DNA of 64,000 nt from positions 4,227 to 68,226 of the forward strand of contig JBBSGK010000004.1 of the NCBI GenBank assembly GCA_038254115.1, written 5' to 3'. This stretch comes from Candidatus Levyibacteriota bacterium. Its GTDB lineage: Bacteria; Patescibacteriota; Microgenomatia; Levybacterales; UBA12049. Below are positions 10,504 to 59,914 of this stretch, piece after piece; position 1 is the stretch's first letter; the number at the start of each line of letters is the position of its first letter. Under the pieces are notes generated by a model. The model was not told where the DNA came from and ran no database searches. It saw only the letters and a list, made by a program, of their open reading frames with translations. Made by a program: the position numbers and the translations under genes.

Positions 10504-10530
10504 TATAGCATTTATTAATCACATTGGCAT

Positions 10531-12689: not shown

Positions 12690-13256
12690 TTGACCAAGCT
12701 ATTTATTCCAATTCTTCTCGGAACTGTACGCCCCAAGCGTGAATCCATAAAAGCCGCAAATTTGATTGAGAAAGTAGGAAAGACGATTAAGGAGATAGAA
12801 GTTTCATTAGTCGATCCGAAGGATTACAATTTTCCCTACGATGGCAATGATCCTGAGAACAAAGACCCGCGCTATTCAAAGCTGACAAAAAAAGCTGATG
12901 GATTTTTTATAGTGACACCGGAATATAATCACAGCTTTCCCGGAACTTTGAAAAGAATGCTCGACTCAGAGCTCAAAAATTACATCCATAAGCCTGTTGC
13001 ATTTGCCGGTGTTTCCAATGGAATTTTTGGGGGAGCCCGGGCTATTGAATCGCTCACCCATACAGTACGTGAGATGGGGCTTGTTCCTACTTTTTCAGAT
13101 GTCTATTTTCCGCAAATTCAGAATCTATTTGATGAAAAAGGAGAGATAATTGATAAGGGATATGTGAAAAGAATTGAGAGGGGATTTGCCGAGCTGATCT
13201 GGATGAGCAAAGCGTTGAAGTGGGGACGGGAGAATCTGGAAAGTATTTATCACTAA
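12690..13256 (+). CDS. NADPH-dependent FMN reductase (flavodoxin-like fold)
   Basis: ...FFIVTPEYNHSFPGTLKRMLD... is the NADPH-dependent FMN reductase signature. The 3' end (ELIWMSKALKWGRENLESIYH*) is repeated twice downstream. Confidence 0.8.
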   Translation: MTKLFIPILLGTVRPKRESIKAANLIEKVGKTIKEIEVSLVDPKDYNFPYDGNDPENKDPRYSKLTKKADGFFIVTPEYNHSFPGTLKRMLDSELKNYIHKPVAFAGVSNGIFGGARAIESLTHTVREMGLVPTFSDVYFPQIQNLFDEKGEIIDKGYVKRIERGFAELIWMSKALKWGRENLESIYH

Positions 13257-13921
13257 GAAGTTGCAAATTCAGGCATTGGTATATCCGCAAAGCGTGGTAC
13301 AAGTTCAGGATTAAGTTCCGGATCCCGGACAGCTCTATTTATAAGTATCAAAGATTCTGCAACATTTCTTTGCAACTCTTCAATTTGATACCATGGGCTT
13401 TCTTCATCCCCAAGTGTGAATCCAGCACCATTTAGCCCTAGGTCTTGCAGCGATTCACGATCCAAGACTTTACCGTACTGGTGGTCAGAATGGTAATTTA
13501 TTTCATGTAGTGGTGTCTCATCAGGTTTAAAGCTGTAATTAATTGTTATAGTACGCATGTCATCCCACTTCGCATCGTCATAACTAACATTCCTGCTTGG
13601 CCTCCCATAAATTTCGGCAACTATCCTGCCGCTTCCATATAATGGTAAAGTAGCTGCTCCAAGATTAACTGGTGTTGAGAAAGCTCTTTTGTTATCTTCA
13701 TTGCCAATGACTTTTAAAAGATCGATTCCTCCTTCGACTAATGATTGTTGTCTTTCAAGAGCAGCAATTTGAAACCGTCTATCAGCAGGATCAATCTCGC
13801 CGTTTTTGACTTTATGATGAGTTTCTGCTCGTTTGAGATGCACTCTCTTTTCTATCATTTGAGCCCTGAGTCTTTCGGGATTCATAAGTATATAGTATAT
13901 CACATAAATGCAATATAGCAA
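13253..13921 (-). CDS. hypothetical protein (cassette gene 1; Arg-rich)
   Basis: 222-aa ORF, convergent with the FMN reductase, stop overlapping its stop. No family recognised. Confidence 0.55.
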   Translation of the reverse strand: MLYCIYVIYYILMNPERLRAQMIEKRVHLKRAETHHKVKNGEIDPADRRFQIAALERQQSLVEGGIDLLKVIGNEDNKRAFSTPVNLGAATLPLYGSGRIVAEIYGRPSRNVSYDDAKWDDMRTITINYSFKPDETPLHEINYHSDHQYGKVLDRESLQDLGLNGAGFTLGDEESPWYQIEELQRNVAESLILINRAVRDPELNPELVPRFADIPMPEFATS

Positions 13922-13976: not shown

Positions 13977-14072
13977 TTTGCCAGGCGAATCGAAAAAGTT
14001 TACACCGAGCTGATCTCGTTGGCAAAGAGTCTGAAATGGGGACGGGAGAATTTGAAAAGTATTTATCACTGA
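13977..14072 (+). pseudogene. degenerate duplicate of the FMN-reductase 3' terminus (fragment B)
   Basis: In-frame fragment RIEKVYTELISLAKSLKWGRENLKSIYH* versus genuine RIERGFAELIWMSKALKWGRENLESIYH*. Roughly 80% nt identity with 13165-13256. No upstream remainder of the gene. Confidence 0.7.
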
Positions 14073-14872
14073 GCATCGGGATCTTGCGGATTCTCTTCAT
14101 CAGAAATTGGATTAAGCATCTCCCGGAGCTTGCGTCTTGCTCTCATCAGTTTTAATCTGACTCCGTCTTCGCTAGTACCGAGAACATCTGCGATCTCTTG
14201 TATTGAAAAAAGTCCACTTTCAACAAGATTGACTACAATACGAGGGTCAAATATGACATGTTCAGTATGGTTTGGTGAATCCGAATCCGCATTATTTTTT
14301 TGTTTTTTATTATAATATTGTTTGGCTACTTCTTCTCCTAAAGCATTTACTCTGGTTTTTAATGTATCTAATTCCGGAATCTCCTCTAAGCTACTGCATA
14401 CCACGTTTAAAGCTTCAATGATATCACTTTTTAGATTACCCCTCCTGGGCAAATGGGGCAAAAGGGTATATCCAGCACTCACTAATAAATCAACGCGGTC
14501 ATGAGGACTTATGGAATCATCTTCAGTTTTAAGTGCTTTCAAATACATCTTTGCTAAAATACTGGGCGCTACTTTTTTTTGATTCAATGGTATCATTTCA
14601 AGTAATTTTAAAGCTCCTCTTCTTTGGCGGATAATCCACGGATTTTCAGTTTGCCCACTTATACCAGAAAGCAACTCTCTAGTTAGATTCGCAGTTTGCC
14701 CGTTTGACCTCTCAGAATAATGATCCAATTCTGTCCTGATACCGCTCATTAGGAGCTTGCGTTTCGGATCGCGTTCATTCAATAAAAGTGATAATAGGCT
14801 ATCTTTTTCTAGGATTCCTGCGACTAAAATACGATGGGGCTGCATTCTTAATTCTTTTCTCTCGTATTGCAT
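14066..14872 (-). CDS. hypothetical protein with a C-terminal sigma-70 region-4-like HTH (cassette gene 2)
   Basis: 268 aa. The C-terminus LFSIQEIADVLGTSEDGVRLKLMRARRKLREML resembles sigma-factor region 4.2. Its stop overlaps the fragment B stop. Confidence 0.55.
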   Translation of the reverse strand: MQYERKELRMQPHRILVAGILEKDSLLSLLLNERDPKRKLLMSGIRTELDHYSERSNGQTANLTRELLSGISGQTENPWIIRQRRGALKLLEMIPLNQKKVAPSILAKMYLKALKTEDDSISPHDRVDLLVSAGYTLLPHLPRRGNLKSDIIEALNVVCSSLEEIPELDTLKTRVNALGEEVAKQYYNKKQKNNADSDSPNHTEHVIFDPRIVVNLVESGLFSIQEIADVLGTSEDGVRLKLMRARRKLREMLNPISDEENPQDPDAQ

Positions 14873-14903: not shown

Positions 14904-14954
14904 ATGTCAAACGGATCGGAGGGAAGGGAGAATTTGAAAAGTATTTATCATTGA
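14904..14954 (+). pseudogene. second, shorter degenerate duplicate of the FMN-reductase 3' terminus (fragment C)
   Basis: MSNGSEGRENLKSIYH*. It matches fragment B at 27 of 28 nt over GGGAGAATTTGAAAAGTATTTATCA. Confidence 0.6.
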
Positions 14955-14958
14955 CTCA

Positions 14959-15621
14959 TCAATTATCATAAACCCTTACTGCAATATCCGGATTTCCGTA
15001 GACTAACGCAGCATCACAAGATCGGAACCAAATATCCAATTGTGTACCGTAACCGTATGTATCATCAATTATAAATCTGTGACCTGCCATCGGACCGGAT
15101 AGGACATCTACATGTGCCCTTTGTGGTTCATCGTTCATGGCAATATCTCCTTCTTTTGCCAATCCCACACCTGAGTTTGTGTCACAATATGCAGTTGATT
15201 TTACAGTACGATCGTGAAAGGTAGAGGATGGATTAGGACTAGAGGCCAACGGATAGGAATCTGTTGTGCTAGCTGAGGTAGGTTCAGTGAAGGTCGGCTC
15301 GGTTTTAGTCGCCGTTTCTTTTGGGGGTGGTGCGGTTATTTCGGGTGAAGCTGTTGGGGGAGGAGCTACAAAAATGGTACTTGTAGATGTATCAGGATTT
15401 ACAAAAATTGTTGTTGAAGTTGGAATTGTACGGGAGGTTGGTTCTACCGCACGCAGGCCTGATGTCACAATAGTTGCACGGTTGTCTACGTGTCTTGCAG
15501 CTGCAACACCTGCGGCTGATTCGGTTAGTGAAACAAATAACATGGCTGAGCGGAATGTTTTTGATCTAAAAAGCCTATTTATCCTATCGGAACGAGCTCC
15601 TTGTTCATGACTTATTCTCAT
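14959..15621 (-). CDS. hypothetical secreted/anchored protein with a Pro/Thr/Ala-rich linker (cassette gene 3)
   Basis: 220 aa. N-terminal hydrophobic segment AMLFVSLTESAAGVAAA, PT-rich stalk, and an approximately 90-aa C-terminal domain. Confidence 0.5.
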   Translation of the reverse strand: MRISHEQGARSDRINRLFRSKTFRSAMLFVSLTESAAGVAAARHVDNRATIVTSGLRAVEPTSRTIPTSTTIFVNPDTSTSTIFVAPPPTASPEITAPPPKETATKTEPTFTEPTSASTTDSYPLASSPNPSSTFHDRTVKSTAYCDTNSGVGLAKEGDIAMNDEPQRAHVDVLSGPMAGHRFIIDDTYGYGTQLDIWFRSCDAALVYGNPDIAVRVYDN

Positions 15622-27507: not shown

Positions 27508-28023
27508 ATGGTAGGTTACGAAGCAAGCTCACATTATATTCCGAGAAAAAACAGAGAATTTAAACCTTCGGATACAGATCCTGCGGCAAGAAGACATTTT
27601 AGAGATCTTCATAAAGCAGCAAATGTATGCGGTGAGAAAAGAGTTACTGTTCCTGCGTATACACCCGAGCGCGCCCTTGTTATAAGAAATTTAGTATCAG
27701 ATTATCCGGATGAGACCCCTATAGCAGTGCTTTATCCACGTTCACAAAAAAGAATGGCCAAAAATAGACTACCTTCTAATCAATGGGAAGAATTTATTGA
27801 TCGACTAGACATATATGTCAAAGGACGCATTGCTTCAGTTTTGAGAAGAGCAGGAACATCCTTTGGCACACTTGGTGCTCTTAGAAAGGCTATAGAAAAA
27901 GGAACGCTTCGCGAGCCACAAAGGTTGGTGTCATCAACAGGGAAAATGAATCCTGCGTTAAGTGAAAGGCAAGCTGGATTTCTTGCACAGGCTTTTGGTC
28001 GTCCTCCCGAAGCTTCACATTAG
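27508..28023 (+). CDS. hypothetical protein (Arg-rich)
   Basis: 171-aa ORF with no recognised family. Confidence 0.45.
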   Translation: MVGYEASSHYIPRKNREFKPSDTDPAARRHFRDLHKAANVCGEKRVTVPAYTPERALVIRNLVSDYPDETPIAVLYPRSQKRMAKNRLPSNQWEEFIDRLDIYVKGRIASVLRRAGTSFGTLGALRKAIEKGTLREPQRLVSSTGKMNPALSERQAGFLAQAFGRPPEASH

Positions 28024-30760: not shown

Positions 30761-30865
30761 GGATAAGATGGATTATAGCAGATTTATTGTGTACTTTTGG
30801 CAGCAAATGTATGCAAAACTGTTTTTTTATATGTTCTTTGTGTGGACAAAGAACCAAAGCCACCG

Positions 30866-31010
30866 CCAAGTCTAGCTCCAGCTTTCGGAATAGCACTCGC
30901 TCATTAAAAGAGTCAGTCTTCGCTACGCTTGCTTTTCCTCTTTTTCTGCCTGGCGGCAGACATTTTTTCGCTTATTTCTCATGCAGTCGCTCGAATCGGC
31001 GGATAATGGT
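30866..31010. repeat. second, partial copy (about 85% identity over about 150 bp) of the MITE-like element interior
   Basis: GTCTAGCTCCAGCTTT...CAGTCTTCGCT(A/G)CGCTTGCTTTTCCTCTTTT...CTGCCTG(G/C)CGGCAGAC...TTTCTCATGCAGTCGCTCGAATCGGCGGATA is shared with 10566-10716. Both copies are in the same orientation. Overlapping ORFs differ in frame and content, so the segment is non-coding. Confidence 0.6.
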
Positions 31011-36005: not shown

Positions 36006-36926
36006 CTATTTTACCATAATCGTCAAGGATTTGGGAAAAATTTCGACTTTCAATTTTTCGACCGGATCGAAAAGGTCACCATCGCATTGAAAAGCTTTTT
36101 TACCTCTTAATGAAACTACGGAAATCTCTTTGCCTGAAAGCAATTTATAGTGCGGGCTTTTGTTGATATTTCCTCTTAAAATATTGATTGCTAAATCAAT
36201 CCAGTGCAGAATTCCTGATGCCTGCATAATACCGATTCTGAGTATTCCATTATCAGCTCTCGCTCCCGGAACTGCTTCAATACCTGATTCAATGCGTCCC
36301 ATGTTTGCGATCATGACACTTTTTGCTTTATAAGTTTTAGGTGGTTTTTTATCAATTGAAACTTTATAATATCCTGATGGGGAGCCAAGGCTTTTAAATC
36401 CTCCTATTATATATGCGAAAAATCCGAGTTTGTTTTTTACTTTACGGTCAGTGTTCTGCATCAATTCTGCGTCAAGTCCTATTCCTGCGATGATTGAGAA
36501 AAATATTCCGTTTGCGCGCCCGATATCTATTTTCTGAGGCTTACCCAATAGTGCAACAGGAATTGCTTTTTTATAATCTGTTGGAATTTTAAGATTCTTG
36601 GCAAACAAATTTCCGGTACCTAGGGGGACTACTCCGATAACGGCCTTTTGTTTGCTTACAGCCTGCAGAATCTCCATTATTGTTCCGTCACCGCCGCAAG
36701 CAATTATATGTCTAGTGCCATTTGCTAGCGCTTTTTTTGCGATAGTGCCGCCATTTATTTTGCGCGACGTTTCATATGCTTTTCCATGCCATCCAAGTTC
36801 TTTTGCAATCTCTAAGATTTTATCTTTCCTTTTCTGACCATCCCCAACCCCGCTTACGGGATTGATGATAAATACAGCATTTTTTGGGCCGTTTTTAGTA
36901 TTAATTTTTATTTTTGTATCAGTCAT
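36006..36926 (-). CDS. lipid kinase, DAGK_cat family (DgkB/YegS-like), second copy
   Basis: IIACGGDGTIMEILQAV...IGVVPLGTGNLFAKNLKIP. Confidence 0.85.
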   Translation of the reverse strand: MTDTKIKINTKNGPKNAVFIINPVSGVGDGQKRKDKILEIAKELGWHGKAYETSRKINGGTIAKKALANGTRHIIACGGDGTIMEILQAVSKQKAVIGVVPLGTGNLFAKNLKIPTDYKKAIPVALLGKPQKIDIGRANGIFFSIIAGIGLDAELMQNTDRKVKNKLGFFAYIIGGFKSLGSPSGYYKVSIDKKPPKTYKAKSVMIANMGRIESGIEAVPGARADNGILRIGIMQASGILHWIDLAINILRGNINKSPHYKLLSGKEISVVSLRGKKAFQCDGDLFDPVEKLKVEIFPKSLTIMVK

Positions 36927-37001: not shown

Positions 37002-37928
37002 ATGTATTGTTATAATGTGAATGTGCAATTCAGTTTTGTCCCCAAAGGTCCCTTTAATTTACTAAACCAGAATAAATACTTCGGCGGTTGGCCCTCCCTC
37101 AACGATGAAAACAATGCGATAGTTCAAGCATTTCCAGTTGAGGGATGGAGCGATTCCGGAGCTGTTGTAATGGAGCAATCATCTGATGGAAAAATAAGAG
37201 GAGAAGTATTGGGTACAAAAAATTCAGAAAAAGCATGGAAGCAGGCTCTTGCAAATATTTCGCTTGATGTAGATGCAAGAAGTTGGCCTGAAGTAGGGCA
37301 ACGCGATCAGGTAATAAAAAATTTACAGGTGAAATATGATTATCTCCGTCCCATACTTTTCAATTCACCATATGAAGCAGCTGTTTCATTTATCATAGGT
37401 CACCGGATCTCAATCAAACAGGGGAGGGCATTAAGGCAAAATATTTCACAGGAGTTTGGTCAGGAGATTAAAATAGGCAATAAGTCATTTTTTGCTTTCC
37501 CAAATCCGGTTGTGATGCAGCGGATTGAAAAATACCCCGGACTTAGCGGCGAAAAAATAGTACGTCTTCAGGGGGTTGCTAAGGCTGCGCTTGAGGGATT
37601 ACTGGATAGAAAATATTTGCGCAGTATTCCGGTTGAAGAGGCACTTTCAAAGATTTGTACGATAAGGGGGATTGGCAAATTTTTTGCGCAGGGAATATTA
37701 CTGCGTGGCGCAGGGCTTAGTGATTTTGTAACAGAGGATGATATTACCCCGCAAGCAATCCAACAGTTGTACAAATTGGATCATGAACCGAATCGTGCTG
37801 AAGTGTTGGAGATTGCAGATAAATGGAAACCATACCGGATGTGGGCGACTGTCCTTATGCATGTTTGGATAAGAAGTGAGGGAGAGATAGTGAGAAGAAA
37901 CACTCCATTCAGTAAAGTAAAGAAATAA
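37002..37928 (+). CDS. HhH-GPD DNA glycosylase (AlkA-like, 3-methyladenine glycosylase II)
   Basis: AlkA-type N-terminal domain followed by an HhH-GPD core (...IRGIGKFFAQGILLRGAG...). Confidence 0.7.
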   Translation: MYCYNVNVQFSFVPKGPFNLLNQNKYFGGWPSLNDENNAIVQAFPVEGWSDSGAVVMEQSSDGKIRGEVLGTKNSEKAWKQALANISLDVDARSWPEVGQRDQVIKNLQVKYDYLRPILFNSPYEAAVSFIIGHRISIKQGRALRQNISQEFGQEIKIGNKSFFAFPNPVVMQRIEKYPGLSGEKIVRLQGVAKAALEGLLDRKYLRSIPVEEALSKICTIRGIGKFFAQGILLRGAGLSDFVTEDDITPQAIQQLYKLDHEPNRAEVLEIADKWKPYRMWATVLMHVWIRSEGEIVRRNTPFSKVKK

Positions 37929-37929
37929 T

Positions 37930-38060
37930 ATGAGCGATATCCCAAATATATCTTTTCAGAAGCTGCAAGTGGCGGATATTCCCCAAATTCATAAGTGGCT
38001 TAAAGAGCCGCATGTACACGCATGGTAAGATAGGTACAAGAAAAATTCTACTGGCGGCAT
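37930..38060 (+). pseudogene. truncated duplicate of the 5' end of the downstream GNAT acetyltransferase gene
   Basis: MSDIPNISFQKLQVADIPQIHKWLKEPHVHAW* versus intact MLNSHKISFRKLEVGDIPQIHKWLKEPHVHEWYDRDKKNS. The 28-nt block ATAAGTGGCTTAAAGAGCCGCATGTACA is identical. A C-to-A nonsense change turns TGGTAC into TGGTAA. Confidence 0.7.
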
Positions 38061-38075
38061 TTATTTTGCGCTCTC

Positions 38076-38915
38076 TTACATTAAACGTGTTTGGGTTTCC
38101 TCTTGGACACGTTTTGAATCAGTTATAAGAACACCCATTAACAGGTCAACCTGATCAGGAGTTAGTTTATTATCTTGTCCCCATTCGTAACGGTCATCTC
38201 TCATTGCCAATTCACGACCCTGGTCTAATATGCCGATTCCAAGAGCATGCTTTACTTTGGCAATTTCCGATGCCAACCTTCTTCTTTCTACTACAGCATC
38301 TATTATCGTAGAGTCTATTTGGGTATTATCCTCGGGTTTTATTTTTACAGCAGAGGTGACATCTGCAAATACAGCATCGAAATTTCTTAATCCTGCTTGA
38401 GTCAGGATAACTTGATCAACCCTATCTAATCCATTTCTATAATCGCTCAAGCGTTGCAGGGAAGAATCGTTACCCCCCTCAATTGGTATTTTGGTGATTG
38501 CTGGATGATGGCGGACAAATACTGCCCAGTTTTCAAACATGTCCCGTGCTGTGTTTAAGCTTTCACTATCAACTTGTCGATTATTCAAAACATGATTTAC
38601 TGTAGTTTGTACTTTTTTGGAGACTTGTGTTATATAATCATTTGGTGGCATTTCTGTAGGTTTGGCGTCCCAATCGACGATGTTACCCAGGGTAACTTCA
38701 TGATGAAACCTCTCCATTGGATTCGTAGGTATTTCCAGCAACATAATGCCTTGTTCCAATGCGCCTCTGTCGCGTCTATCATCGTAGCCATTACTTGCGC
38801 GCAAGCGTCTTCTACTGCTAAAGACGGTAATTGCATCGCTTACTCTATATAAGTCAAGGAAGGATGCTGCGCGGGGCGCATCAGGTTTTGTCGGTTTTTC
38901 AAGTGTTCCCCACAT
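38076..38915 (-). CDS. hypothetical protein (Arg-rich; inserted between the GNAT fragment and the intact GNAT gene)
   Basis: 279-aa ORF with no family recognised. Confidence 0.55.
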   Translation of the reverse strand: MWGTLEKPTKPDAPRAASFLDLYRVSDAITVFSSRRRLRASNGYDDRRDRGALEQGIMLLEIPTNPMERFHHEVTLGNIVDWDAKPTEMPPNDYITQVSKKVQTTVNHVLNNRQVDSESLNTARDMFENWAVFVRHHPAITKIPIEGGNDSSLQRLSDYRNGLDRVDQVILTQAGLRNFDAVFADVTSAVKIKPEDNTQIDSTIIDAVVERRRLASEIAKVKHALGIGILDQGRELAMRDDRYEWGQDNKLTPDQVDLLMGVLITDSKRVQEETQTRLM

Positions 38916-38963
38916 AATGCGTGATTATATACCAGCAGCCTCATTTTGTAAATCTAACGTCAT

Positions 38964-39524
38964 ATGGAGTGCTACAATATGCATATGCTTAATTCTCACA
39001 AGATATCATTCCGGAAGCTGGAAGTTGGGGATATTCCACAAATCCATAAGTGGCTTAAAGAGCCGCATGTACATGAATGGTACGATAGGGACAAAAAAAA
39101 TTCGCTTGAAGAAGTTACCGCGGAGTATACCAAATACATAACAGGGGAAGACAAAATGGATGGATACTTGGTGTGTATTGAAAATAAAGCAATAGGGTAT
39201 ATCCAGAAATACAGGATCTGGGACTGGCCTGAGTTTGCAAAAGCTTTAGGCTATGATAAGTCCACAGTAGCGATTGATATATTTATAGGAGATAAGAAGT
39301 TTATAGGAAAGGGTTTGGGATGTTGTTTTATTAAAAAGTTTCTAAAGGAAATAGTTTTCAAGGAAGAGGGGATAAGGACATGTCTTATTGATCCCGAGCC
39401 GGAAAATAAGCGTGCAATAAAGTCTTACGAAAAAGCAGGATTCCGATATGTCAAAACCCTAGATATCCCACCAGACCCGGGGCTTACTTATTTGATGGAG
39501 ATAAGGAAAGAAGACGCCAAATAG
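38964..39524 (+). CDS. GNAT-family N-acetyltransferase (aminoglycoside-acetyltransferase-like)
   Basis: GNAT core ...IGDKKFIGKGLGCCFIKKFLKEIVF...NKRAIKSYEKAGFRYV. The likely true start is the ATG at 38985 (MLNSHK...), just after a TACAAT box at 38971-38976, which implies a leaderless mRNA. Confidence 0.85.
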   Translation: MECYNMHMLNSHKISFRKLEVGDIPQIHKWLKEPHVHEWYDRDKKNSLEEVTAEYTKYITGEDKMDGYLVCIENKAIGYIQKYRIWDWPEFAKALGYDKSTVAIDIFIGDKKFIGKGLGCCFIKKFLKEIVFKEEGIRTCLIDPEPENKRAIKSYEKAGFRYVKTLDIPPDPGLTYLMEIRKEDAK

Positions 39525-39603
39525 TAATTTAATTTGAATTCTTACCAAACTGTGATGGTATTCAGATGTGGTCCTTAAGATACTTGCCTACGCTTAATGA
39601 GCT

Positions 39604-48799: not shown

Positions 48800-49438
48800 T
48801 TGGAATTGTCTGATGTACCCAGAGGACCGCAAGCTGTTGTTTCAAGACCTGATATCAGTGAAAAAGATTGGGAAGCGGCTAATGCCACTCACCGTATCTT
48901 AACTAAGGAAGAAAGAGAAGTGGATAGACCAGGGGAGGGCCAATTAGACAGGTTTGCGCGGATTTCTAGTGAGGCACAGACCTATTCGGATGTAAATTAT
49001 CGGGTTCAGGAAGCAATTGATATTAATCAAGCCCGTGATACTGCCGAAAGATTTGGGCTTGAGCCTTCTTTGGCTGATGATGATTTGGTTTTCAGAAGAG
49101 ATTTGAAAATCGCCGTACAAATTCTTGATGAGCTTGGTTTGGACGGTAAGCAAGTCTATAGTAATGAGGACCAGCGTCGGGCTCTGCAGCAGCTAATAGC
49201 AAGCGAAGTTAGAGTTGGAGGCCATGAAGGACGCGTTATGAGAGCTAAAGCCGCAGTGGAGCTCGCGCAGCAGAAGTTAGATAATGAACAGGCTTTACTT
49301 GAGCGAGAATTACAAGCAAATGCTTCTAGCGAAGAGGAGTTAGTTAGATTGGCTGGTAGAAATGAATCTGACTCTGCATCATCTCCTAGTGCCAATTCAC
49401 CAGTAAAAGATAATCCTAATTCGGAGCCTGATGTTTGA
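48800..49438 (+). CDS. hypothetical protein (Arg/Glu-rich, coiled-coil-like C-terminus)
   Basis: 212 aa with a TTG start as called. The upstream frame is open to 48605 but lacks ATG or GTG. Confidence 0.45.
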   Translation: MELSDVPRGPQAVVSRPDISEKDWEAANATHRILTKEEREVDRPGEGQLDRFARISSEAQTYSDVNYRVQEAIDINQARDTAERFGLEPSLADDDLVFRRDLKIAVQILDELGLDGKQVYSNEDQRRALQQLIASEVRVGGHEGRVMRAKAAVELAQQKLDNEQALLERELQANASSEEELVRLAGRNESDSASSPSANSPVKDNPNSEPDV

Positions 49439-51746: not shown

Positions 51747-52901
51747 TTGGAAAAACGTGGGCAAGCTGATAGAATAGGTTTAATTATGAATCTCTTGAAT
51801 AGTTTCTACGGTCTTTTTTCTCACGATATCGGTATAGATCTCGGCACTGCAAATACTCTTGTTTTTGTCCGGGATAAAGGGATTGTGATCCGTGAACCGT
51901 CAGTTGTCGCGAGGCAAAAAAAGAGCAAACAAATCATCGCGATTGGAAGTGAGGCCAAGAAAATGCTTGGCAAGACACCTGCTTCTATAGTTACGGTACG
52001 TCCGCTTCATGGGGGAACGATTGCGGATTTTGACGCGACTGTTTCGATGATCGCTTACTACATCAAGCAAGTCCATGAGATGGGGGGAAAATTGACCGGG
52101 ATTTTTGCCCGTCCCAAAGTGGTGATTGGGATTCCATCTGCAGTAACCGAGGTTCAAAGACGTGCTGTCTGGGAAGCAGCTCTCTCAGCAGGAGCCCGGG
52201 AAGCGTATCTTATTGAAGAGCCGATGGCCGCGGCAATTGGTGAGAATATATCAATTTTTCAGTCAAAGGGCATAATGGTAGTCGATATAGGCGGCGGGAC
52301 TACAGAAATCGCGGTTATCTCGCTTGGTGGAATAGTAGTCGGCCGGTCAATGAAACTCGCCGGAGACGAGATGGATCAGGCGATCCTGCATTATGTGCGG
52401 CTTCGCCATGGAATGCTTCTTGGGGAGAGTACAGCTGAGGATATAAAAATAAAAATAGGAAGCGCTGCCCAGAAAAGCGCAAAAGCGCAAAAGCGAAGAA
52501 GCGAAGAAGGGGAAGAAGAGAAGGAAGAGATTAGCCGTACGGCGAAGGTTATGATTGTGAGGGGACGGGATATTGAGACTGGTCTTCCAAAAAGCCAGAA
52601 GATAACTGAGCCTGAAATACGTGAGGCATTATCTCCGATAATCAATCAAATAATTCAAGCCGTTGCCGATGTTTTGGAGGAAACGCCGCCTGAGCTATTG
52701 CCTGATATTCTCGAGCAGGGAATTCTTCTCACAGGTGGGGGCGCCAATTTGGAAGGCTTTGATCAGTTGATGGTTGAACGGGTGCATCTGCCTGTTTTTG
52801 TTTCATCTGATCCGATGACCTCTGTTGTCCGCGGAACGGGAAAAGTTGTGCAGGATGAAAAACTCCTCGAGCGGGTGAAGGTAATTGGGGGATTGAGGTA
52901 G
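51747..52901 (+). CDS. mreB: rod-shape-determining protein MreB (with an approximately 35-aa charged insert)
   Basis: Actin-fold motifs DLGTANT, VIGIPSAVTEVQRRA and DIGGGTTE. The insert QKSAKAQKRRSEEGEEEKEE is encoded by the heptamer repeat (AAAGCGC)n(GAAGCGA)n at 52474-52512. Confidence 0.93.
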   Translation: MEKRGQADRIGLIMNLLNSFYGLFSHDIGIDLGTANTLVFVRDKGIVIREPSVVARQKKSKQIIAIGSEAKKMLGKTPASIVTVRPLHGGTIADFDATVSMIAYYIKQVHEMGGKLTGIFARPKVVIGIPSAVTEVQRRAVWEAALSAGAREAYLIEEPMAAAIGENISIFQSKGIMVVDIGGGTTEIAVISLGGIVVGRSMKLAGDEMDQAILHYVRLRHGMLLGESTAEDIKIKIGSAAQKSAKAQKRRSEEGEEEKEEISRTAKVMIVRGRDIETGLPKSQKITEPEIREALSPIINQIIQAVADVLEETPPELLPDILEQGILLTGGGANLEGFDQLMVERVHLPVFVSSDPMTSVVRGTGKVVQDEKLLERVKVIGGLR

Positions 52902-52921
52902 GAATAAAATTGTTATCCTGC

Positions 52922-53476
52922 TCATGCAGCCGGATTGAGCGCTATCCTACCGGTACGCAGTCCAAAGAAAAAATCTTCCGCTTTTGCCCGTTCATTTTCT
53001 GTGAGTCTGGCCAGGCTTTCGGCAGTTGAAGCATCAATTCTCGCACCGGTCATCATGATAGGAAGAGCTTCCATTTCGTCTACACTCAATTCACGTGAGC
53101 CTAGAGGAATATGGAATGTTGTTCCGTCTTCTTCTGCAACAACATAAGACTTTCTTTCCATGGATGAAGGTCCAATCCCATCTTTACCAGGAATAGGAGT
53201 AAAGGTTGACTTGACAGTTTGAGGACCATCCTCAAACATTACACCGGAACGTGTTAAACCAACTCCTGCTGTATTTGATTTGGCGTTGGGATCCACATAA
53301 TTGAGGCGATATCCACCATCTGATCCTCTGACTTTTATTCCTTCTTTCGCAGACTTTAAATCTCCTAACCCACCATAAAATAAGCTGATGGCCATTCTTC
53401 TTGCATCATCCTTTCTGCTTTGGTCTGGACTTAGTGGTCTTTCTGGTGAGCTTGCCATAATAAGTGGATGATACAT
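52922..53476 (-). CDS. hypothetical protein inserted between mreB and mreC
   Basis: Start trimmed to the ATG at 53474-53476 (MYHPLIMASSPER...). The longer ORF to 53782 overlaps a plus-strand promoter and ORF. Confidence 0.5.
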   Translation of the reverse strand: MYHPLIMASSPERPLSPDQSRKDDARRMAISLFYGGLGDLKSAKEGIKVRGSDGGYRLNYVDPNAKSNTAGVGLTRSGVMFEDGPQTVKSTFTPIPGKDGIGPSSMERKSYVVAEEDGTTFHIPLGSRELSVDEMEALPIMMTGARIDASTAESLARLTENERAKAEDFFFGLRTGRIALNPAA

Positions 53477-53500
53477 TTTTAATAACAGATTGTCAAGACT

Positions 53501-53531
53501 AGCGGTGAAGGTAATTGGGGGATTGAGGTAG
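53501..53531 (+). repeat. duplicate of the last 31 nt of mreB (29 of 31 identical), distal to the inserted gene
   Basis: AGCGGTGAAGGTAATTGGGGGATTGAGGTAG versus the mreB 3' end GCGGGTGAAGGTAATTGGGGGATTGAGGTAG at 52871-52901. Confidence 0.7.
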
Positions 53532-53534
53532 AGA

Positions 53535-53562
53535 TTGCAAATAAACAAAATTGTGGTAGAAT
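53535..53562 (+). promoter_or_regulatory. sigma-70-like promoter (TTGCAA, 16-nt spacer containing TG, TAGAAT)
   Basis: TTGCAA at 53535-53540, then TGgTAGAAT with TAGAAT at 53557-53562, followed 8 nt later by the ATG at 53571. Confidence 0.35.
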
Positions 53563-53570
53563 GCATTTCT

Positions 53571-53882
53571 ATGGGATTAGAAACACAAGATAGATTGGCA
53601 AGAGAAAGAGTACTTGCTACGCTTACATCAATGTCAAATGATGCATATCCATCAAACACACGGCATATAGCTGAAAGAATGGTTCGAGGCAAACCTACAA
53701 CGGGTGATCTGGTAACTGTTTTTCTTGCGTTGGGTCCACTTGAGGAGGAAGGAAAAGTAGAATCTGTTGTAGTTAGACACACAAATCCGGCACATATTGC
53801 TTATCGATTAACCAGAGAATCAGAGCCAAGACGTAGGCGAAAACGAAATAGAAAATGGCCAATAGAGGAAGTTAGAAGATAA
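53571..53882 (+). CDS. small winged-helix-like protein (PadR-like?) with an Arg-rich tail, hypothetical
   Basis: MGLETQDRLARERVLATLTS...TTGDLVTVFLALGPLEEEGKVESVV resembles the PadR wing (LYPALHRLEEEGLI). The C-terminus is RRRRKRNRK. Confidence 0.35.
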   Translation: MGLETQDRLARERVLATLTSMSNDAYPSNTRHIAERMVRGKPTTGDLVTVFLALGPLEEEGKVESVVVRHTNPAHIAYRLTRESEPRRRRKRNRKWPIEEVRR

Positions 53883-55284: not shown

Positions 55285-57078
55285 ATGAAAACAGGATACG
55301 CCTTTGGTGAGCATATAAAAACAGAGAAGATCAAAAAAAGAAGATATTCGTCAGGTCCGTCGGATTTTAACTCGCGCGAATTTTTTCTTCCCCTTGCACT
55401 TTTTGGAGCAGCCGTTCTTCTGATATCCAAACTATTTTATCTGCAAGTGGTTAAGGGTTCTGATTTCCGGGCGCTTTCTGATTCCAACCGAATAAGGACT
55501 CAAATTATTCATGCTCCGCGGGGTGCTATATTTGACCGGAACGGTGTCCCGCTTGTAATAAATAATCCGGGATTCAGGCAGGTAAATAAAGACAAATCAA
55601 CAATCTTGACTCGGGATCAGGCGCTGCCTCTTATTGCAAAAGGGGATAAAAATCTCGAGGTAGACTCTCTCAGGAATTATGTCTTAAAAGACAGTCTGAG
55701 CCATGTTATCGGATACATCGGCCAGGTCTCCAAGCCCGAGCTCGATTCAGGGGAGTTTAATGATTACCGTGGTACTGATTGGATAGGTAAAAGCGGAATT
55801 GAGAGGCAATATGAACACATATTGAGGGGCACAGACGGTAAGCAACTGGTTGAAGTCAATGCAATGGGTAATAAAGTGCGTCCACTTGGCACGACCGATC
55901 CAATTTCAGGGCAGGATATCACACTGACGATTGATTCGAAGCTTCAGCAAGTTGTATTTGACGCGACAAAAGATGTAAAAAAGGGCGCTGTTATCGTCTC
56001 CAGCCCGACAGGTGAAATTCTGGCAATGGTTTCGCGTCCTTCTTATGACCCCAATCTTTTTACCCTGGATAAAACTTATAAAGTTGCAACGGATGCAGCG
56101 CATCAAAATGTAAGTGAGATACTTCTGGATTCACAAAATCAGCCGCTTTTGAACAGGGCAATTGCAGGTACATATCCTCCCGGCTCAACATACAAAATAG
56201 TGACAGCCGCCGCCGGACTTAATGAAAATATTATTGATGAGAATTACAAGATACGCGACAGCGGTGTAATAAAAGTCGGGGAGTTTTCTTTTGCGAATTG
56301 GTACTATACGGGTTATGGCAGGACAGAGCCGGGTGAGCTAAATGTAGTCCGTGCACTGGCTCGGTCCAATGACATTTTTTTCTACAAACTTGCTGAAAAA
56401 GTAAGTCCTGACAAGCTATCTGAAATGGCAGTAAAATTTGGTTTGGGAAATAAATCGGGCATTGACTTGGGAGGAGAAGCAAAAGGTTTGGTTCCTACTG
56501 AAAAATGGAAAAAAACTGTAATTGGGGAGGGATGGTACTTGGGAGACACTTATCATTATGGAATAGGACAGGGATTTTTATTGACAACACCTCTTCAAGT
56601 TAATGAATGGACAGAGGTAGTTGCAAATGGCGGGAGTCTGTACGAGCCACATTTGCTGAAAGCTCAAAGTGAAAAGCGCAAAAGCGCAAATATTTTGAAT
56701 GATAAGACGATTTCTTTGATCAGGCAGGGAATGATTGAAAGCTGCTCAACGGGAGGTGTTGCGTGGCCATTATTCAAGTTTAAAGTTCAAAATCCAAAGT
56801 TAAAAGTTGATGGCAAAAATATTTTGGAAGTAAAAGAAGCCAGTGAATCAGCAAAATCTGAAAGCTTGAGAGAGATTGCGGTGGCGTGCAAGACTGGAAC
56901 CGCCCAGCATGGAGGGGAGACGACCCTGCCTCATGCATGGATTACCCTCTTTGCTCCTGCATACAATCCCCAAGTTGTAGTAACTGTTTTGAATGAGGAG
57001 AGTGGGGAAGGCTCAAATGAGGCAGCCCCAATAGCTAAAAAGATATTGGAAGCCTATTTTACAGAAACACCTCAATAA
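55285..57078 (+). CDS. mrdA: penicillin-binding protein 2 (peptidoglycan D,D-transpeptidase)
   Basis: N-terminal anchor, dimerisation domain, and transpeptidase motifs SxxK (PGSTYKIV), SxN (ARSNDIFFY) and KTG (ACKTGTAQ). It contains (AAAGCGC)x2 at 56672-56689. Confidence 0.9.
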   Translation: MKTGYAFGEHIKTEKIKKRRYSSGPSDFNSREFFLPLALFGAAVLLISKLFYLQVVKGSDFRALSDSNRIRTQIIHAPRGAIFDRNGVPLVINNPGFRQVNKDKSTILTRDQALPLIAKGDKNLEVDSLRNYVLKDSLSHVIGYIGQVSKPELDSGEFNDYRGTDWIGKSGIERQYEHILRGTDGKQLVEVNAMGNKVRPLGTTDPISGQDITLTIDSKLQQVVFDATKDVKKGAVIVSSPTGEILAMVSRPSYDPNLFTLDKTYKVATDAAHQNVSEILLDSQNQPLLNRAIAGTYPPGSTYKIVTAAAGLNENIIDENYKIRDSGVIKVGEFSFANWYYTGYGRTEPGELNVVRALARSNDIFFYKLAEKVSPDKLSEMAVKFGLGNKSGIDLGGEAKGLVPTEKWKKTVIGEGWYLGDTYHYGIGQGFLLTTPLQVNEWTEVVANGGSLYEPHLLKAQSEKRKSANILNDKTISLIRQGMIESCSTGGVAWPLFKFKVQNPKLKVDGKNILEVKEASESAKSESLREIAVACKTGTAQHGGETTLPHAWITLFAPAYNPQVVVTVLNEESGEGSNEAAPIAKKILEAYFTETPQ

Positions 57079-57098
57079 AATCTTGCACTTGAATTTTC

Positions 57099-57674
57099 TT
57101 GCCCCCCCTGATAGAATATAGGACTATGAGATTTGAAAAGCAAGATAGAAGACCACATGTAGCAAGGGATGGTCAACGCGGCAGAAGCGAGGAGGGCTCG
57201 GAGCTTCCGGCCGGCCCAAGAAAAAGTTTTTTTGATGCTGTTAACCAAAAGGGTTCTGATATGCGTGATTTAGCCTGCCGAGGGTTACTATATCAGTCAA
57301 CAACTGGCGAGATAACTGTGGGAAGTAATCCCCAAAATGGGCCAAAAGTTACAATAACGGTTGATATTAAGGCAAATCGTGATATGGTGGTTCATAGACG
57401 CATATATCATGATTCCAGCGGCAAGCATCTAAAAAGACATGATGAATTGGAACTTACATCTTCAGACAGGGATCCAGCAACAAGAACTTTCACAAGAATT
57501 AGAATTGAGAGTGAGGATCACATAAGCGGAAAAAAGTCTTTCACCATTGATAATGAGGGACCAGATCAAGTAGTAGACCAAAGCGGTGTAGATTTTGCAA
57601 CAAAAATTCTTAAAGATGCATCCGGTGATTTAAAGCGCTTAATGAGACCTGAGGCATCTGATGAGTTCGCGTAA
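57099..57674 (+). CDS. hypothetical protein (Arg-rich) inserted after mrdA
   Basis: 191-aa ORF, bracketed by the mrdA 3' end and its duplicate. Confidence 0.5.
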   Translation: MPPLIEYRTMRFEKQDRRPHVARDGQRGRSEEGSELPAGPRKSFFDAVNQKGSDMRDLACRGLLYQSTTGEITVGSNPQNGPKVTITVDIKANRDMVVHRRIYHDSSGKHLKRHDELELTSSDRDPATRTFTRIRIESEDHISGKKSFTIDNEGPDQVVDQSGVDFATKILKDASGDLKRLMRPEASDEFA

Positions 57675-57687
57675 CTCTCCCCAAAAA

Positions 57688-57733
57688 GCCAAAAAAATCT
57701 TGGAAGCGTATTTTACAGATCGAAAATAATTGA
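57688..57733 (+). pseudogene. degenerate duplicate of the mrdA 3' terminus
   Basis: GCCAAAAAAATCTTGGAAGCGTATTTTACAGATCGAAAATAATTGA encodes KKILEAYFTDRK*, versus genuine GCTAAAAAGATATTGGAAGCCTATTTTACAGAAACACCTCAATAA (AKKILEAYFTETPQ*) at 57034-57078. Confidence 0.65.
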
Positions 57734-57779: not shown

Positions 57780-58115
57780 ATGATTGATAGGGACCAGGTC
57801 CGAGCAAGGTATAGGAGATTAAAGCCTTTTGTAAGCAGTTTAGAGAGCGTACCAAAAGCAGAGCAATTGTGGAGAAACAAAGACCGAGGCGTAATATTCT
57901 CATTATTAAAATATGCAACTTTAGAAGACGCAGTATTAGGTGATTACACTGGGGCAGAACTAAATTTACGTGGGAGATTAAGAGCAAGAACAAAAGTTGT
58001 TGATGATTTTGTCAGAGCTTTTGGTAAGCCAACTAGAGAAAAATTGACTAAAGTGCTGGGAGTACCTAAAAAGGTAATATGGGAAGATCCAAGAATTAAT
58101 AGATCCTCACAATAA
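57780..58115 (+). CDS. hypothetical protein (Arg-rich)
   Basis: 111-aa ORF. Confidence 0.4.
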   Translation: MIDRDQVRARYRRLKPFVSSLESVPKAEQLWRNKDRGVIFSLLKYATLEDAVLGDYTGAELNLRGRLRARTKVVDDFVRAFGKPTREKLTKVLGVPKKVIWEDPRINRSSQ

Positions 58116-58138
58116 GACTGGATTCTGCATAAAGATTA

Positions 58139-58765
58139 TTGTATAATACCGCCATGGTATTAGCAGAAGTAGAAACAGAAGGCAAAGAACAAGATGGGTA
58201 TTTCAGAGTCCGCAGGTTTGTCGCCCGGGTGTCGGATCTGCATGAGCTTCAGGAACAAAGACTTGAAGGTATGAAGATGGAGCGAGGGGTCGGATCGCTT
58301 GATGGCCAGATCGCTATAGTTGAGGAGGATTTGCGTGACAGAGCTGAGCAGACTGAGGTGCAGGATTGGGCAGCCAGAAAGAAGGAGCAGTACGATGCCG
58401 AGTTTACTGGACTTGTGCGCCAAAAAGGGCGACGGGGACAAAGCCTCTCAGCATTAGATGAAGAGATTGAAGCTCTAAGAGGAAGTAAAGAGGTCTTAGC
58501 TCTACGTTGGTACTTAGAAAGTAGGCAGGGAGGGTCGAGAAAGAGGGGCCAAAAATCTCCATCAGCAAATGCGCAGAAACGAGTTGCTGCACTTGGTAGG
58601 GCTATTAAAGATGGAAATTATAGAACACCACAGGGGCATTTTGCAGTAGGGCGAGCAGCAACAGATATTGGAATAGGGCCAAATACTGCCAAAAGAGATT
58701 TTATGAGACTGCCAGCAGATCAAAGAGGGGGACTGACCCTTAGAACAGCCGCTCCTAGAAAATAA
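58139..58765 (+). CDS. hypothetical protein (Arg-rich)
   Basis: 208-aa ORF. Confidence 0.45.
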   Translation: MYNTAMVLAEVETEGKEQDGYFRVRRFVARVSDLHELQEQRLEGMKMERGVGSLDGQIAIVEEDLRDRAEQTEVQDWAARKKEQYDAEFTGLVRQKGRRGQSLSALDEEIEALRGSKEVLALRWYLESRQGGSRKRGQKSPSANAQKRVAALGRAIKDGNYRTPQGHFAVGRAATDIGIGPNTAKRDFMRLPADQRGGLTLRTAAPRK

Positions 58766-58789: not shown

Positions 58790-59914
58790 ATGCAAGAAAG
58801 ATCATATTGGCTTGGGTTTTCTTCTTTTTCGGGGATTGGGCCCAAGAAGTGTGAAGCTTTATTAAATGAATTCGGCACTGCTGAGGATGCATGGAAAGCG
58901 GATTTTAAAAATCTGGAGAAAGTATTGGGGAAAGCGCTTACCCCAAAGTTTGCAGATTTCCGTGACAGTTTCTCGATAGCAGACTATGAAAAACAACTCC
59001 TAAGGAAAAAGGTGGGATATTTGATTCTTACGGATAAAGATTACCCGTTCTTGTTAAAACAAATCAAGAAACCTCCATTTGTACTTTATTATAAGGGTAA
59101 TATTGAGATCTTGAAACAAGACGTGCCTACCGGTAGGCAGGTTCAGGATGACTATAAATCTATTGCGATTGTCGGGACGCGGCGGATTACTGAGTATGGA
59201 AAACAAGTGACTACCAGTCTTACAATGGACTTGGTAAACAATGGTTTTGTAGTTGTTTCAGGGCTTGCTCTGGGAGTTGACGCTGCAGCCCACAAGGCAA
59301 CTATCTTGAATAAAGGCAAGACAATAGCGGTACTTGGGTGCGGAGTTGATTGCTGTTATCCCAGGGAGAACCAGCAGATTTATGATAACATTCTTGAGAG
59401 TGGGGGAGCGATTGTGTCTGAATATTCTCTTGGTGAGCCCCCCTCAAAAGGATCTTTTCCATCAAGAAATCGAATTATCTCAGGTTTGTCATGCGGCGTA
59501 ATTGTAACAGAAGGATCTGCAGATAGCGGGGCGTTGTATACGGCAGATGATGCATTTGCCAATGGACGGCCCGTATTCGCAGTTCCAGGGCCCATCACAT
59601 CGAGCCTCTCAAAAGGCCCTCATGGATTGATAGGAAAAGGGGCAAAGCTTATAAGCGGGGCTGGGGAAATCATAGAGGAATTAGGTTTCAGAGGAGACAG
59701 AAGAGACAAAGGGGAGAGAGGGGCGAAGAGTTTTAAGGGAGATACAAAAGATGAACAGAGAATTATCGATCTCCTGCAGAATGAAAGCCTGCATTTTGAT
59801 GAGATTGTAAAACGAAGCAAGATCAGGTCTTCAAAACTGGGCGGAATTCTTTCAATGATGGAGATGAAAGGAATTGTAAAAAGTCAGGAAGCTGGCTTTT
59901 TCTGTTTGATTTAG
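58790..59914 (+). CDS. dprA: DNA-processing protein A (Smf/DprA)
   Basis: Rossmann-like DprA core IAIVGTRRITEYGKQ...VVSGLALGVDAAAHKA...IAVLGCGVD..YP, plus a C-terminal winged-helix-like domain. Confidence 0.85.
   Translation: MQERSYWLGFSSFSGIGPKKCEALLNEFGTAEDAWKADFKNLEKVLGKALTPKFADFRDSFSIADYEKQLLRKKVGYLILTDKDYPFLLKQIKKPPFVLYYKGNIEILKQDVPTGRQVQDDYKSIAIVGTRRITEYGKQVTTSLTMDLVNNGFVVVSGLALGVDAAAHKATILNKGKTIAVLGCGVDCCYPRENQQIYDNILESGGAIVSEYSLGEPPSKGSFPSRNRIISGLSCGVIVTEGSADSGALYTADDAFANGRPVFAVPGPITSSLSKGPHGLIGKGAKLISGAGEIIEELGFRGDRRDKGERGAKSFKGDTKDEQRIIDLLQNESLHFDEIVKRSKIRSSKLGGILSMMEMKGIVKSQEAGFFCLI

Follow-up and report, generated by a model that had tools for sequence, protein, structure and literature searches.

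Within the 64,000-nucleotide (nt) stretch of DNA analyzed here, which comes from a Candidatus Levyibacteriota bacterium and which we call the window, the gene for a GNAT acetyltransferase is preceded by a truncated second version of its own 5' end, and a single minus-strand gene lies between the two. Our data indicate that this GNAT locus has received an insertion, and that the truncated piece was displaced from a diverged, working GNAT allele. The features of the locus are given below, one per line (aa, amino acids; ORF, open reading frame). L-numbers here and throughout denote related metagenome contigs.

37002-37928, plus strand: AlkA-like DNA glycosylase gene, 308 aa, resident neighbor upstream of GNAT (ORF list, homology, context in L113 and L112)
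37930-38048, plus strand: displaced, pseudogenized GNAT 5' end, contiguous with the AlkA-like gene as in relatives
37990-38018, plus strand: 29-nt identical block, candidate crossover region (read from the sequence and the alignment with 39045-39073)
38049-38075, no strand: novel junction, where the end of the GNAT homology is joined to the 27-nt 3' flank of the cargo gene (alignments; past codon 41, homology to relatives is in the intact copy only)
38076-38915, minus strand: inserted ("cargo") gene, 279 aa, with a predicted type II chorismate mutase domain at the C-terminus (Pfam CM_2)
38916-38984, no strand: divergent intergenic region of 69 nt that came with the insert, unrelated to the sequence upstream of GNAT in relatives
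38985-39524, plus strand: intact GNAT gene, 179 aa, with alternative starts at 38964 and 38979 (ORF list, Pfam)

The two versions of the GNAT 5' end form a direct repeat of 104 nt (37945-38048 and 39000-39103) that was recovered by a repeat search and by blastn, and that is gap-free, 87% identical and has a spacing of 1055 nt. A pairwise alignment of the fragment with the GNAT start, as suggested in a preliminary description of the locus, gave 90 matches in 104 positions, far above the maximum of 48 in 104 for a shuffled control (30 shuffles, 3 kb downstream). The truncated duplicate that had been described is confirmed by this repeat, whose second copy makes up the first 119 nt of the intact gene (39000-39103 at 87%). 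The longest identical core of the repeat, initially given as 28 nt, does exist and is 29 nt in length (37990-38018 = 39045-39073). The fragment ORF at 37930-38028 has 32 codons, with the translation MSDIPNISFQKLQVADIPQIHKWLKEPHVHAW followed by a stop, and its ATG at 37930 overlaps the stop region of the AlkA-like gene (TAATATG). It ends at an in-frame TAA at 38026-38028 where intact GNAT has TAC, which bears out the nonsense change reported earlier, and its GNAT homology extends beyond that TAA up to about 38048 (codon 41). An independent Logan assembly of run SRR24807095 (L001, 7302 nt) was 100% identical across the whole region, so the locus is not a chimera of the metagenome-assembled genome.

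Comparison with relatives revealed the arrangement that preceded the insertion. By looking up the contigs of closer GNAT homologs we found L113 (Logan, SRR22742740) and L112 (SRR22742741), both of which have an AlkA-like gene directly adjacent to GNAT, the arrangement that had been proposed as a check on the initial observation. In L113, which has the gene order DAGK homolog, second unrelated acetyltransferase, AlkA-like gene and GNAT, an uninterrupted GNAT (71%) starts 13 nt beyond the stop of the AlkA-like gene (76% aa identity), and the junction is the same in L112. AlkA beside GNAT was absent from 80 GNAT loci of species-representative genomes and from three contexts of AlkA homologs. L113 is colinear with the window over 37022-38030 (AlkA and fragment) and again over 39030-39535 (intact GNAT, from about codon 15). 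Because L113 and L112 keep AlkA directly beside an uninterrupted GNAT, the window has an insertion of ~1055 nt inside GNAT, in support of the insertion between fragment and intact gene that was originally described. A four-way alignment placed the boundaries: the fragment is preceded, like GNAT in the relatives, by the AlkA 3' end (26/38 and 29/39 identical), the intact copy by sequence unrelated to theirs (13/38 and 15/39), and past codon 41 homology to the relatives continues in the intact copy alone. The insert thus comprises the 27-nt 3' flank of the cargo gene, the cargo gene itself, the 69-nt divergent promoter region and a replacement for GNAT codons 1-41. Along with the insert came a substitute GNAT start and a new upstream region, and so GNAT has lost its coupling to AlkA. 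Among the closest GNAT homologs the upstream neighbor varies as well: in L112 and L113 it is AlkA-like, and L114, L115 and L116 have a small divergent gene in that place, each a different one. This neighbor differed throughout the contigs examined, and the GNAT 5' boundary itself is a variable junction.

The codons in which the two copies differ indicate where their divergence took place. The GNAT copies have 8 synonymous and 6 non-synonymous differences over 34 alignable codons. When pooled over the four repeat pairs in the window (see below), the proportion of differences was 0.44 at synonymous sites (pS) and 0.084 at non-synonymous sites (pN), a pN/pS of 0.19, with a synonymous excess at P = 3e-6. 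Neutral decay since an in-place duplication would predict ~50 non-synonymous differences in the pooled set versus the ~16 observed (P about 1e-8), and ~21 versus 6 for GNAT alone (P about 2e-4). In addition, all of the fragments kept their reading frame and the position of their stop codon. Because the differences are mostly synonymous, the copies spent most of their divergence inside working genes and were brought together recently. That the fragment is the displaced 5' end of a diverged working GNAT allele, rather than a local duplicate that decayed, is therefore well supported by the codon comparison. The earlier view of the fragment as a copy of the GNAT start holds with respect to homology, but not if "copy" is taken to mean one made in place. 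Among the positions that distinguish the copies and at which the two relatives have the same base, 9 match the fragment, 4 the intact copy and 10 neither of them, a split that is consistent with the fragment representing the resident allele, although it is not significant. The motif IPQIH is common to both GNAT copies, all 16 other aligned homologs having L instead. Each copy is thus the nearest known relative of the other, in agreement with an origin as alleles of related strains. At about 73% identity, a sliding-identity scan of intact GNAT did not resolve a mosaic breakpoint.

The layout of repeat, single gene and repeat is not confined to GNAT, as there are five such events at four genes in the 64 kb (GNAT, FMN-reductase twice, mreB and PBP2). 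The preliminary description had remarked on the same architecture at the FMN-reductase locus; it is confirmed there and extends to mreB and PBP2. The features of these loci, together with dprA, are:

12690-13256, plus strand: FMN-reductase gene, parallel case, with a 3' end that would have been displaced twice
13253-13921, minus strand: first insert gene of the FMN locus, between the FMN-reductase gene and the first 3'-end fragment
13980-14072, plus strand: first FMN-reductase 3'-end fragment (repeat search)
14066-14872, minus strand: second insert gene of the FMN locus, with a sigma-70 region 4 helix-turn-helix at the C-terminus
14921-14954, plus strand: second FMN-reductase 3'-end fragment (repeat search)
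52874-53531, plus strand: mreB parallel case, with a single minus-strand ORFan (52922-53476) between the copies, located between mreB and mreC
57026-57729, plus strand: PBP2 parallel case, with the 3' end at 57026-57078 and a diverged repeat at 57680-57729 (KKILEAYFTDRK, then stop)
58790-59914, plus strand: dprA, for the DNA-processing protein of natural transformation (Pfam DNA_processg_A, E=9.9e-72), context for DNA entry and outside the scar

At the FMN locus there are three copies of the 3' end (13188-13256, 13980-14072 and 14921-14954), separated by two single minus-strand genes whose stops overlap the stop codons of the 3'-end copies in a convergent manner. The last 28 nt of mreB (52874-52901, encoding VKVIGGLR and the stop) are repeated at 53504-53531 with 100% identity, and the distal copy lies 4 nt from the next ORF, a second ORFan at 53535-53882. 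The PBP2 copies enclose one plus-strand ORFan (57099-57674), and the end of the PBP2 fragment resembles genuine PBP2 tails of relatives. Two more arginine (Arg)-rich ORFans (57780-58115 and 58139-58765) lie between the PBP2 locus and dprA. Gene-end copies are packed tightly on their own neighbors, as seen in the overlapping stops at FMN-reductase, the 4 nt at mreB and the overlap of the AlkA stop with the fragment ATG. Because of this packing, the native junction is that between an end copy and its neighbor, and in each unit the novel joint lies at the far side of the cargo gene. The unit attached to the gene body is in every case the newest, with older ones pushed outward. No duplicates of tRNA ends were found within the window, in which an Rfam scan identified only four tRNAs.

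The genes at the GNAT locus were analyzed individually. The AlkA-like protein has weak NCBIfam matches, under the cut-off, to DNA-3-methyladenine glycosylase 2, and its homologs carry the JGI name DNA-3-methyladenine glycosylase II, so that the gene upstream of the fragment is probably a distant AlkA/Ogg-type glycosylase. Intact GNAT, found at 38985 after the insert as first described, matches Pfam Acetyltransf_8 (PF13523; E=2.7e-25, 89.1 bits versus a cut-off of 27) over profile positions 5-144 of 145. NCBIfam AAC(6') models also match it, and because all of these matches are below their cut-offs we do not assign it as a specific aminoglycoside acetyltransferase. The 840-bp minus-strand gene at 38076-38915, reported to be Arg-rich, proved to be an ORF of 279 aa with 8.9% Arg. 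It was indeed inserted, but its description as hypothetical holds only in part, as residues 199-272 match Pfam CM_2 (PF01817; E=4.2e-12, 46.5 bits versus a cut-off of 27). NCBIfam chorismate mutase models match it as well, every one of them (equivalogs) below cut-off. The first chorismate mutase helix (R-x-x-ID-x-VD) is apparently located ~30 residues before the Pfam match, based on a homolog alignment read by eye. We predict that the protein carries a type II (AroQ) chorismate mutase domain at about residues 155-275; its N-terminal half is uncharacterized. An AlphaFold model is confident (pLDDT 83) and entirely alpha-helical, and it gave no meaningful fold match against the PDB by Foldseek. 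The protein is without any hint of a recombinase, nuclease or mobility enzyme, and we therefore treat it as cargo.

Full-length homologs of the cargo protein are rare, with only 2 among 1.84 billion representatives (41% and 36% identity), and a word-indexed search found no relative of the gene. Homologs in two more distant relatives are within a few kb of tRNA-Trp and L33, the same chromosomal neighborhood as in the window, in differing immediate contexts, and thus the cargo gene belongs to the flexible gene pool of the tRNA-Trp/L33 neighborhood. Flanking repeats were sought around the homologs in L082 and L084 and none were found. The promoter of the cargo gene is near consensus (TTTACA-17-TATAAT, 38952 to 38924, minus strand), and a possible extended -10 element for GNAT, TGCTACAAT, was noted by eye at 38970-38978. 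Each of the other inserts also appears to have its own promoter, read by eye. At the joint, the 3' flank of the cargo gene (38049-38071) matches 36743-36765 at 20 of 23 nt, a stretch coding for SRKINGGT within the DAGK gene, which lies two genes upstream. The match is probably due to chance, though it is placed exactly at the junction.

The five inserted proteins have no detectable relatedness to one another, and each is richer in Arg than in lysine (Lys). Apart from the chorismate mutase domain, their domain matches are limited to the sigma-70 region 4 domain, or there are none. Many small ORFans without a Pfam match are found across the window, with R/(R+K) of 0.6-0.8 versus 0.1-0.4 for most housekeeping genes and a low GC content at third codon positions (e.g., 10132-10503, 14959-15621, 27508-28023, 48800-49438, 53535-53882 and 57780-58765). 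All five of the repeat-flanked inserts fall in this class.

Two other repeats were observed in the window. One is a non-coding direct repeat of 184 nt (10530-10713 and 30824-31005), the copies of which are 81.5% identical and 20 kb apart, with no Rfam match and no sizeable ORF; one copy is just upstream of a PEPcase_2 gene and the other is beside the Arg-rich ORFan at 10132-10503. The second is in a 963-aa ORF (2427-5318) that has a perfect 42-nt tandem duplication (3943-4026) and diverged internal repeats of ~360 nt (span 3943-4865), features that point to a putative repetitive surface-type protein.

Related scars were found in other Patescibacteria, including at the same junctions. Among 23 related metagenome contigs, the mreB-mreC junction was uninterrupted in 8 and filled with 1.1-5.3 kb of unrelated genes in 5. 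PBP2 and dprA abut directly in L087 and have ~0.75-1.5 kb between them in six other contigs. Both junctions are insertion hotspots. The inserts of relatives at these sites had no duplicates of the PBP2 tail, and none of the mreB tail except in L095 (5612-6244), where the end of an inserted, unrelated nucleotidyltransferase-like gene is a copy of the MreB tail (TIGGLK, then stop). Because most hotspot insertions are without a gene-end duplication, the duplication is an occasional by-product of insertion and not obligatory. In L084 (5041-5180), the final 32 nt of the L33 gene recur at 100% identity 108 nt downstream, with 76 nt between the copies, and the window carries a 162-aa gene at the position that matches this spacer. 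In L107 (1547-3168), two nested scars lie by tRNA-Trp: a 42-nt duplication of the tRNA-Trp 3' end and its flank (93% identical) encloses a 335-aa DUF711 gene, and a neighboring 145-aa gene lies between 30-nt copies (97% identical) of the sequence that came after it.

Longer arrays were also present in these contigs. In L004 (5802-7548) and L006 (5809-8332), three copies of the tRNA-His 3' end, 18-23 nt in length and 100% identical, bound single-gene units, those of L006 encoding, in order, a small GIY-YIG protein, an ORFan of 301 aa and a homolog of GNAT. One of the tRNA-His-end copies in L004 is part of an 88-nt segment that occurs twice (97% identical). No integrase was found within ~6 kb of these tRNA-His arrays. 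L008 (618-8123) has six copies of a 108-148-nt repeat, 87-96% identical and 1.2-1.5 kb apart; the minus strand of the repeat would encode a short protein N-terminus (MGPxPRNTSLDLDSGIIKSIERILSAFDD...). Between these copies lie one to three plus-strand genes, with a GNAT homolog among them, and no full-length version of the repeated gene was found in that locus.

Signatures of known mobile elements were looked for in a survey that covered the window and the array-flanking proteins. No integrase or transposase domain was matched in ~25 window proteins or in 10 proteins beside the arrays in L004, L006 and L107. The five inserted proteins and those next to them had no recombinase, transposase, nuclease, phage or defense match in scans with Pfam, PHROGs, PADLOC and NCBIfam, and neither the cargo gene nor the other inserts had a match in viral contigs or in phage and plasmid records. 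The GNAT insert has no terminal inverted repeats, only internal, weak ones. No attC-like imperfect hairpin or IntI was found, the unit boundaries being coding-end copies without inverted-repeat structure. Several candidates were rejected on these grounds. A transposon or insertion sequence would have a transposase and terminal inverted repeats, neither of which was found, and the repeats are long and diverged rather than a short identical duplication. An integron cassette was rejected since there is no attC hairpin and no integrase and the boundaries are the coding end of the adjacent gene. A diversity-generating retroelement was rejected as the 14 mismatches involve all bases (A in 2 of 14 fragment sites and 4 of 14 intact sites) and the proteins tested have no reverse transcriptase domain. 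Reuse of a single att site is not seen either, with four unrelated targets in the window and repeat lengths of 28 to about 125 nt. The targets are GNAT, FMN reductase, MreB and PBP2, with no PADLOC matches, and the loci do not have the make-up of a polymorphic toxin with immunity cargo.

The history that these comparisons support well is an insertion into an ancestral AlkA-GNAT unit in which the resident GNAT 5' end would have been displaced by that of a diverged allele. As the mechanism we favor, at a little better than an even chance, an end displacement in which a donor neighbor gene and a donor gene end entered together by one homologous anchor and one illegitimate join. The resident would have had an AlkA-like gene directly followed by GNAT, and the donor would have been a diverged relative with a chorismate-mutase-domain gene divergent from, and immediately upstream of, its own GNAT allele. 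Donor DNA would have paired with resident GNAT by homology, with the 29-nt identical block as the candidate crossover, and its far, non-homologous end, just past the stop codon of the cargo gene, would have been joined illegitimately inside resident GNAT at codon 41. The product would be AlkA, the dead old GNAT codons 1-41, the cargo gene, the donor promoter region and the donor GNAT start fused to the rest of GNAT, with the change from TAC to TAA in the dead fragment being later than, or coincident with, the displacement. In such an event GNAT would be kept intact and its coupling to AlkA lost, the gain would be one promoter-bearing gene and the loss would be nothing. Three other genes would have undergone the same displacement at their 3' ends, namely mreB, PBP2 and, twice in series, the FMN-reductase gene.

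This scheme would also explain why the duplications are seen. Products would survive only where nothing was destroyed, which, with spacers of 0-20 nt, would favor joins inside the redundant resident gene end. Surviving events would carry gene-end duplications because, in compact genomes, the redundant gene end is almost the sole harmless join site. Since hotspots are often filled without duplications, a by-product of illegitimate joining fits better than an obligatory att duplication. We infer that the one-anchor event, i.e., homology-facilitated illegitimate recombination, followed entry of the DNA by natural transformation, and the presence of dprA in the window was counted in favor of that route.

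Published experiments on illegitimate recombination have mostly reported deletion of recipient DNA at the illegitimate side, unlike the present loci, where the join would be inside the anchor region and produce a duplication. In its combination of one homologous anchor with one illegitimate join, and with dprA in the window, the proposed event is otherwise like the homology-facilitated illegitimate recombination described in naturally transformable bacteria (de Vries & Wackernagel 2002; Prudhomme et al. 2002; Meier & Wackernagel 2003, in PMC5361080), a process defined in PMC3240628. The closest parallel in outcome is the C-terminal displacement and the orphan arrays of Rhs, contact-dependent inhibition (CDI) and type VI secretion system (T6SS) effector-immunity loci (Jackson et al. 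2009, as cited in Kirchberger et al. 2017, PMC5361080). In those loci, as in ours, a gene gains a new end together with cargo, and its old end, with short homology, is pushed outward with its old neighbor. Repeated events there lead to arrays, the alleles come from other strains and not from duplication, and illegitimate recombination has been proposed; for T6SS and Rhs arrays the proposal was sequential displacement by its homology-facilitated form (PMC5361080). Our cases differ in that the genes are ordinary ones, the cargo is no immunity gene, one case is at a 5' end, the pieces are 28 to ~125 nt and the host is a reduced-genome member of the Patescibacteria. End displacement has already been proposed for Rhs and T6SS loci, and what would be new here is its occurrence at ordinary genes and at a 5' end.

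There are likenesses to integron cassettes as well, in the compact single-gene units arranged in arrays and in an AAC(6')-like GNAT, which is typical integron cargo. Unlike integron cassettes, the units have their own promoters, no attC-like hairpin or IntI was found, and the repeats are copies of the end of the neighboring gene. A further likeness is to the accretion of cis-mobilizable elements (ICESt1/CIME) and to the serial integration of tRNA-targeting integrative elements, the tycheposons (10.1101/2020.12.28.424599). As there, direct repeats of the target end flank our units, new units push older ones outward and partial target copies are scattered, and the repeat unit in L004 and L006 is a tRNA-His 3' end, as for tRNA-targeting elements. 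Unlike those elements, no integrase, excisionase or replication module was found in or near the units, which consist of single cargo genes at diverse targets.

Several points weigh against end displacement as we have described it. A donor genome in which the cargo gene adjoins GNAT was not found in any collection searched. Homology-facilitated illegitimate recombination is rare in the laboratory (PMC5361080). The cargo gene may have moved locally and not come from outside, given that its homologs in two more distant relatives are near tRNA-Trp/L33. The codon test relies on short alignable stretches that were picked by similarity, which biases it toward conserved sequence. Lastly, all five novel joints are within about 33 nt of the promoter or stop of the imported gene. 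Joints this tidy exceed what random illegitimate joining would give, unless later trimming or selection was involved, and they leave room for a dedicated cassette mechanism.

Of the alternatives, one that we consider unlikely is a Campbell-type event, in which a circle with the cargo gene and one copy of GNAT codons 1-41 would integrate by a single homologous crossover and so duplicate the homology. The circles would have formed by recombination between flanking repeats in an earlier host, making the units passive cassettes moved by host recombination alone. Such events would account for the variable direct repeats (28 to ~125 nt), the diverged copies, the compact units and the serial arrays with the newest unit by the gene body. 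The minimum length for RecA-dependent exchange is near 28-29 nt, and the identical cores at GNAT and mreB (28-29 nt) are near that minimum, but the PBP2 copies and the first two FMN copies share just 11-16 nt of uninterrupted identity. Moreover, the cargo homologs in L082 and L084 sit elsewhere without flanking repeats, and most hotspot insertions in relatives are without duplications. DNA imported by transformation is linear and single-stranded, not circular, and the initial formation of a circle would still require an illegitimate event.

An integrase acting in trans on integrase-less satellites (cis-mobilizable elements or degraded tycheposons), with att sites in gene ends and serial accretion, has in our estimation a similarly low probability. 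The layout does resemble attL and attR, with identical cores of 29 nt (GNAT) and 28 nt (mreB) and the newer units nearest the target, and the tRNA-His 3'-end copies of L004 and L006 are like the partial tRNAs of tycheposon islands (10.1101/2020.12.28.424599). Against this, the window proteins tested and those next to the arrays of L004, L006 and L107 yielded no integrase, and the targets within one genome are many and unrelated (the 5' end of GNAT and the 3' ends of FMN-reductase, mreB and PBP2), those of L107 including intergenic sequence. The repeat lengths also vary four-fold, and the units are single cargo genes without an element backbone.

A dedicated, previously undescribed cassette system of the Patescibacteria is, in our view, also rather improbable. 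Its units would consist of a promoter plus an ORF, 0.6-1.3 kb in size, located at the ends of conserved genes or tRNAs, bounded by copies of the target end and without an integrase in cis, attC or transposase. Doubtful as it is, such a system would be compatible with the tight boundaries of the five window units and with the arrays in L004, L006, L008 and L107.

We regard as very unlikely a history with two GNAT genes, in which a mobile unit of cargo gene and GNAT(b) came to lie beside AlkA-GNAT(a) and a deletion then removed the 3' part of GNAT(a) up to the stop of the cargo gene. GNAT homologs are patchy in distribution and occur in single-gene units elsewhere in Patescibacteria, the upstream neighbor of GNAT differs between contigs, and the copies would be diverged functional alleles, all of which agree with such a history. 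It needs, however, two acquisitions of genes that are each other's closest known relatives (IPQIH in both), plus a deletion that ended 22 nt from the stop codon, and it fails for mreB and PBP2, which are single-copy essential genes with only their last 28-50 nt repeated. Even less probable is a duplication made in place, as a tandem duplication or a long target-site duplication due to a staggered cut at the insertion of the cargo gene, that has since decayed neutrally. The mreB repeat, 100% identical over 28 nt, and the nonsense mutation of the GNAT fragment are what such a duplication could produce, but the shortage of non-synonymous differences, both pooled and at GNAT alone, and the retention of frame and stop position in the fragments are not, and a rescue would need later allelic replacement of each intact end. 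Finally, an assembly artefact joining two strains might be suspected in a metagenome-assembled contig whose copies share a 29-nt identical block, but it is barely credible, given the identical independent assembly and a fragment that runs 30 nt past that block with its own variants into unique sequence, with no repeat at the joint.

The Patescibacteria (candidate phyla radiation) are for the most part uncultivated, and their tiny genomes hold many ORFans of obscure origin. The scars described here provide datable footprints of the addition of single genes at conserved-gene junctions, with no loss and with DNA from diverged relatives. They give the order of acquisition, because the newest unit adjoins the gene body, and they mark hotspots (mreB-mreC, PBP2-dprA, the L33/tRNA-Trp region and the GNAT 5' boundary). 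In annotation, all of the gene-end fragments, with the 32-codon ORF among them, should be treated as remnants and not as genes, and GNAT as transcriptionally uncoupled from AlkA. If a dedicated cassette system were true, it would be a functional analogue of the integron behind much of the ORFan gain in reduced genomes. The single locus is less telling than the set to which it belongs, as it is one of many footprints of gene gain at conserved junctions. The scars at other genes suggest that end displacement is a routine route of gene gain in this small-genome bacterium, and that one-anchor recombination, not classical mobile elements, drives gene gain here.

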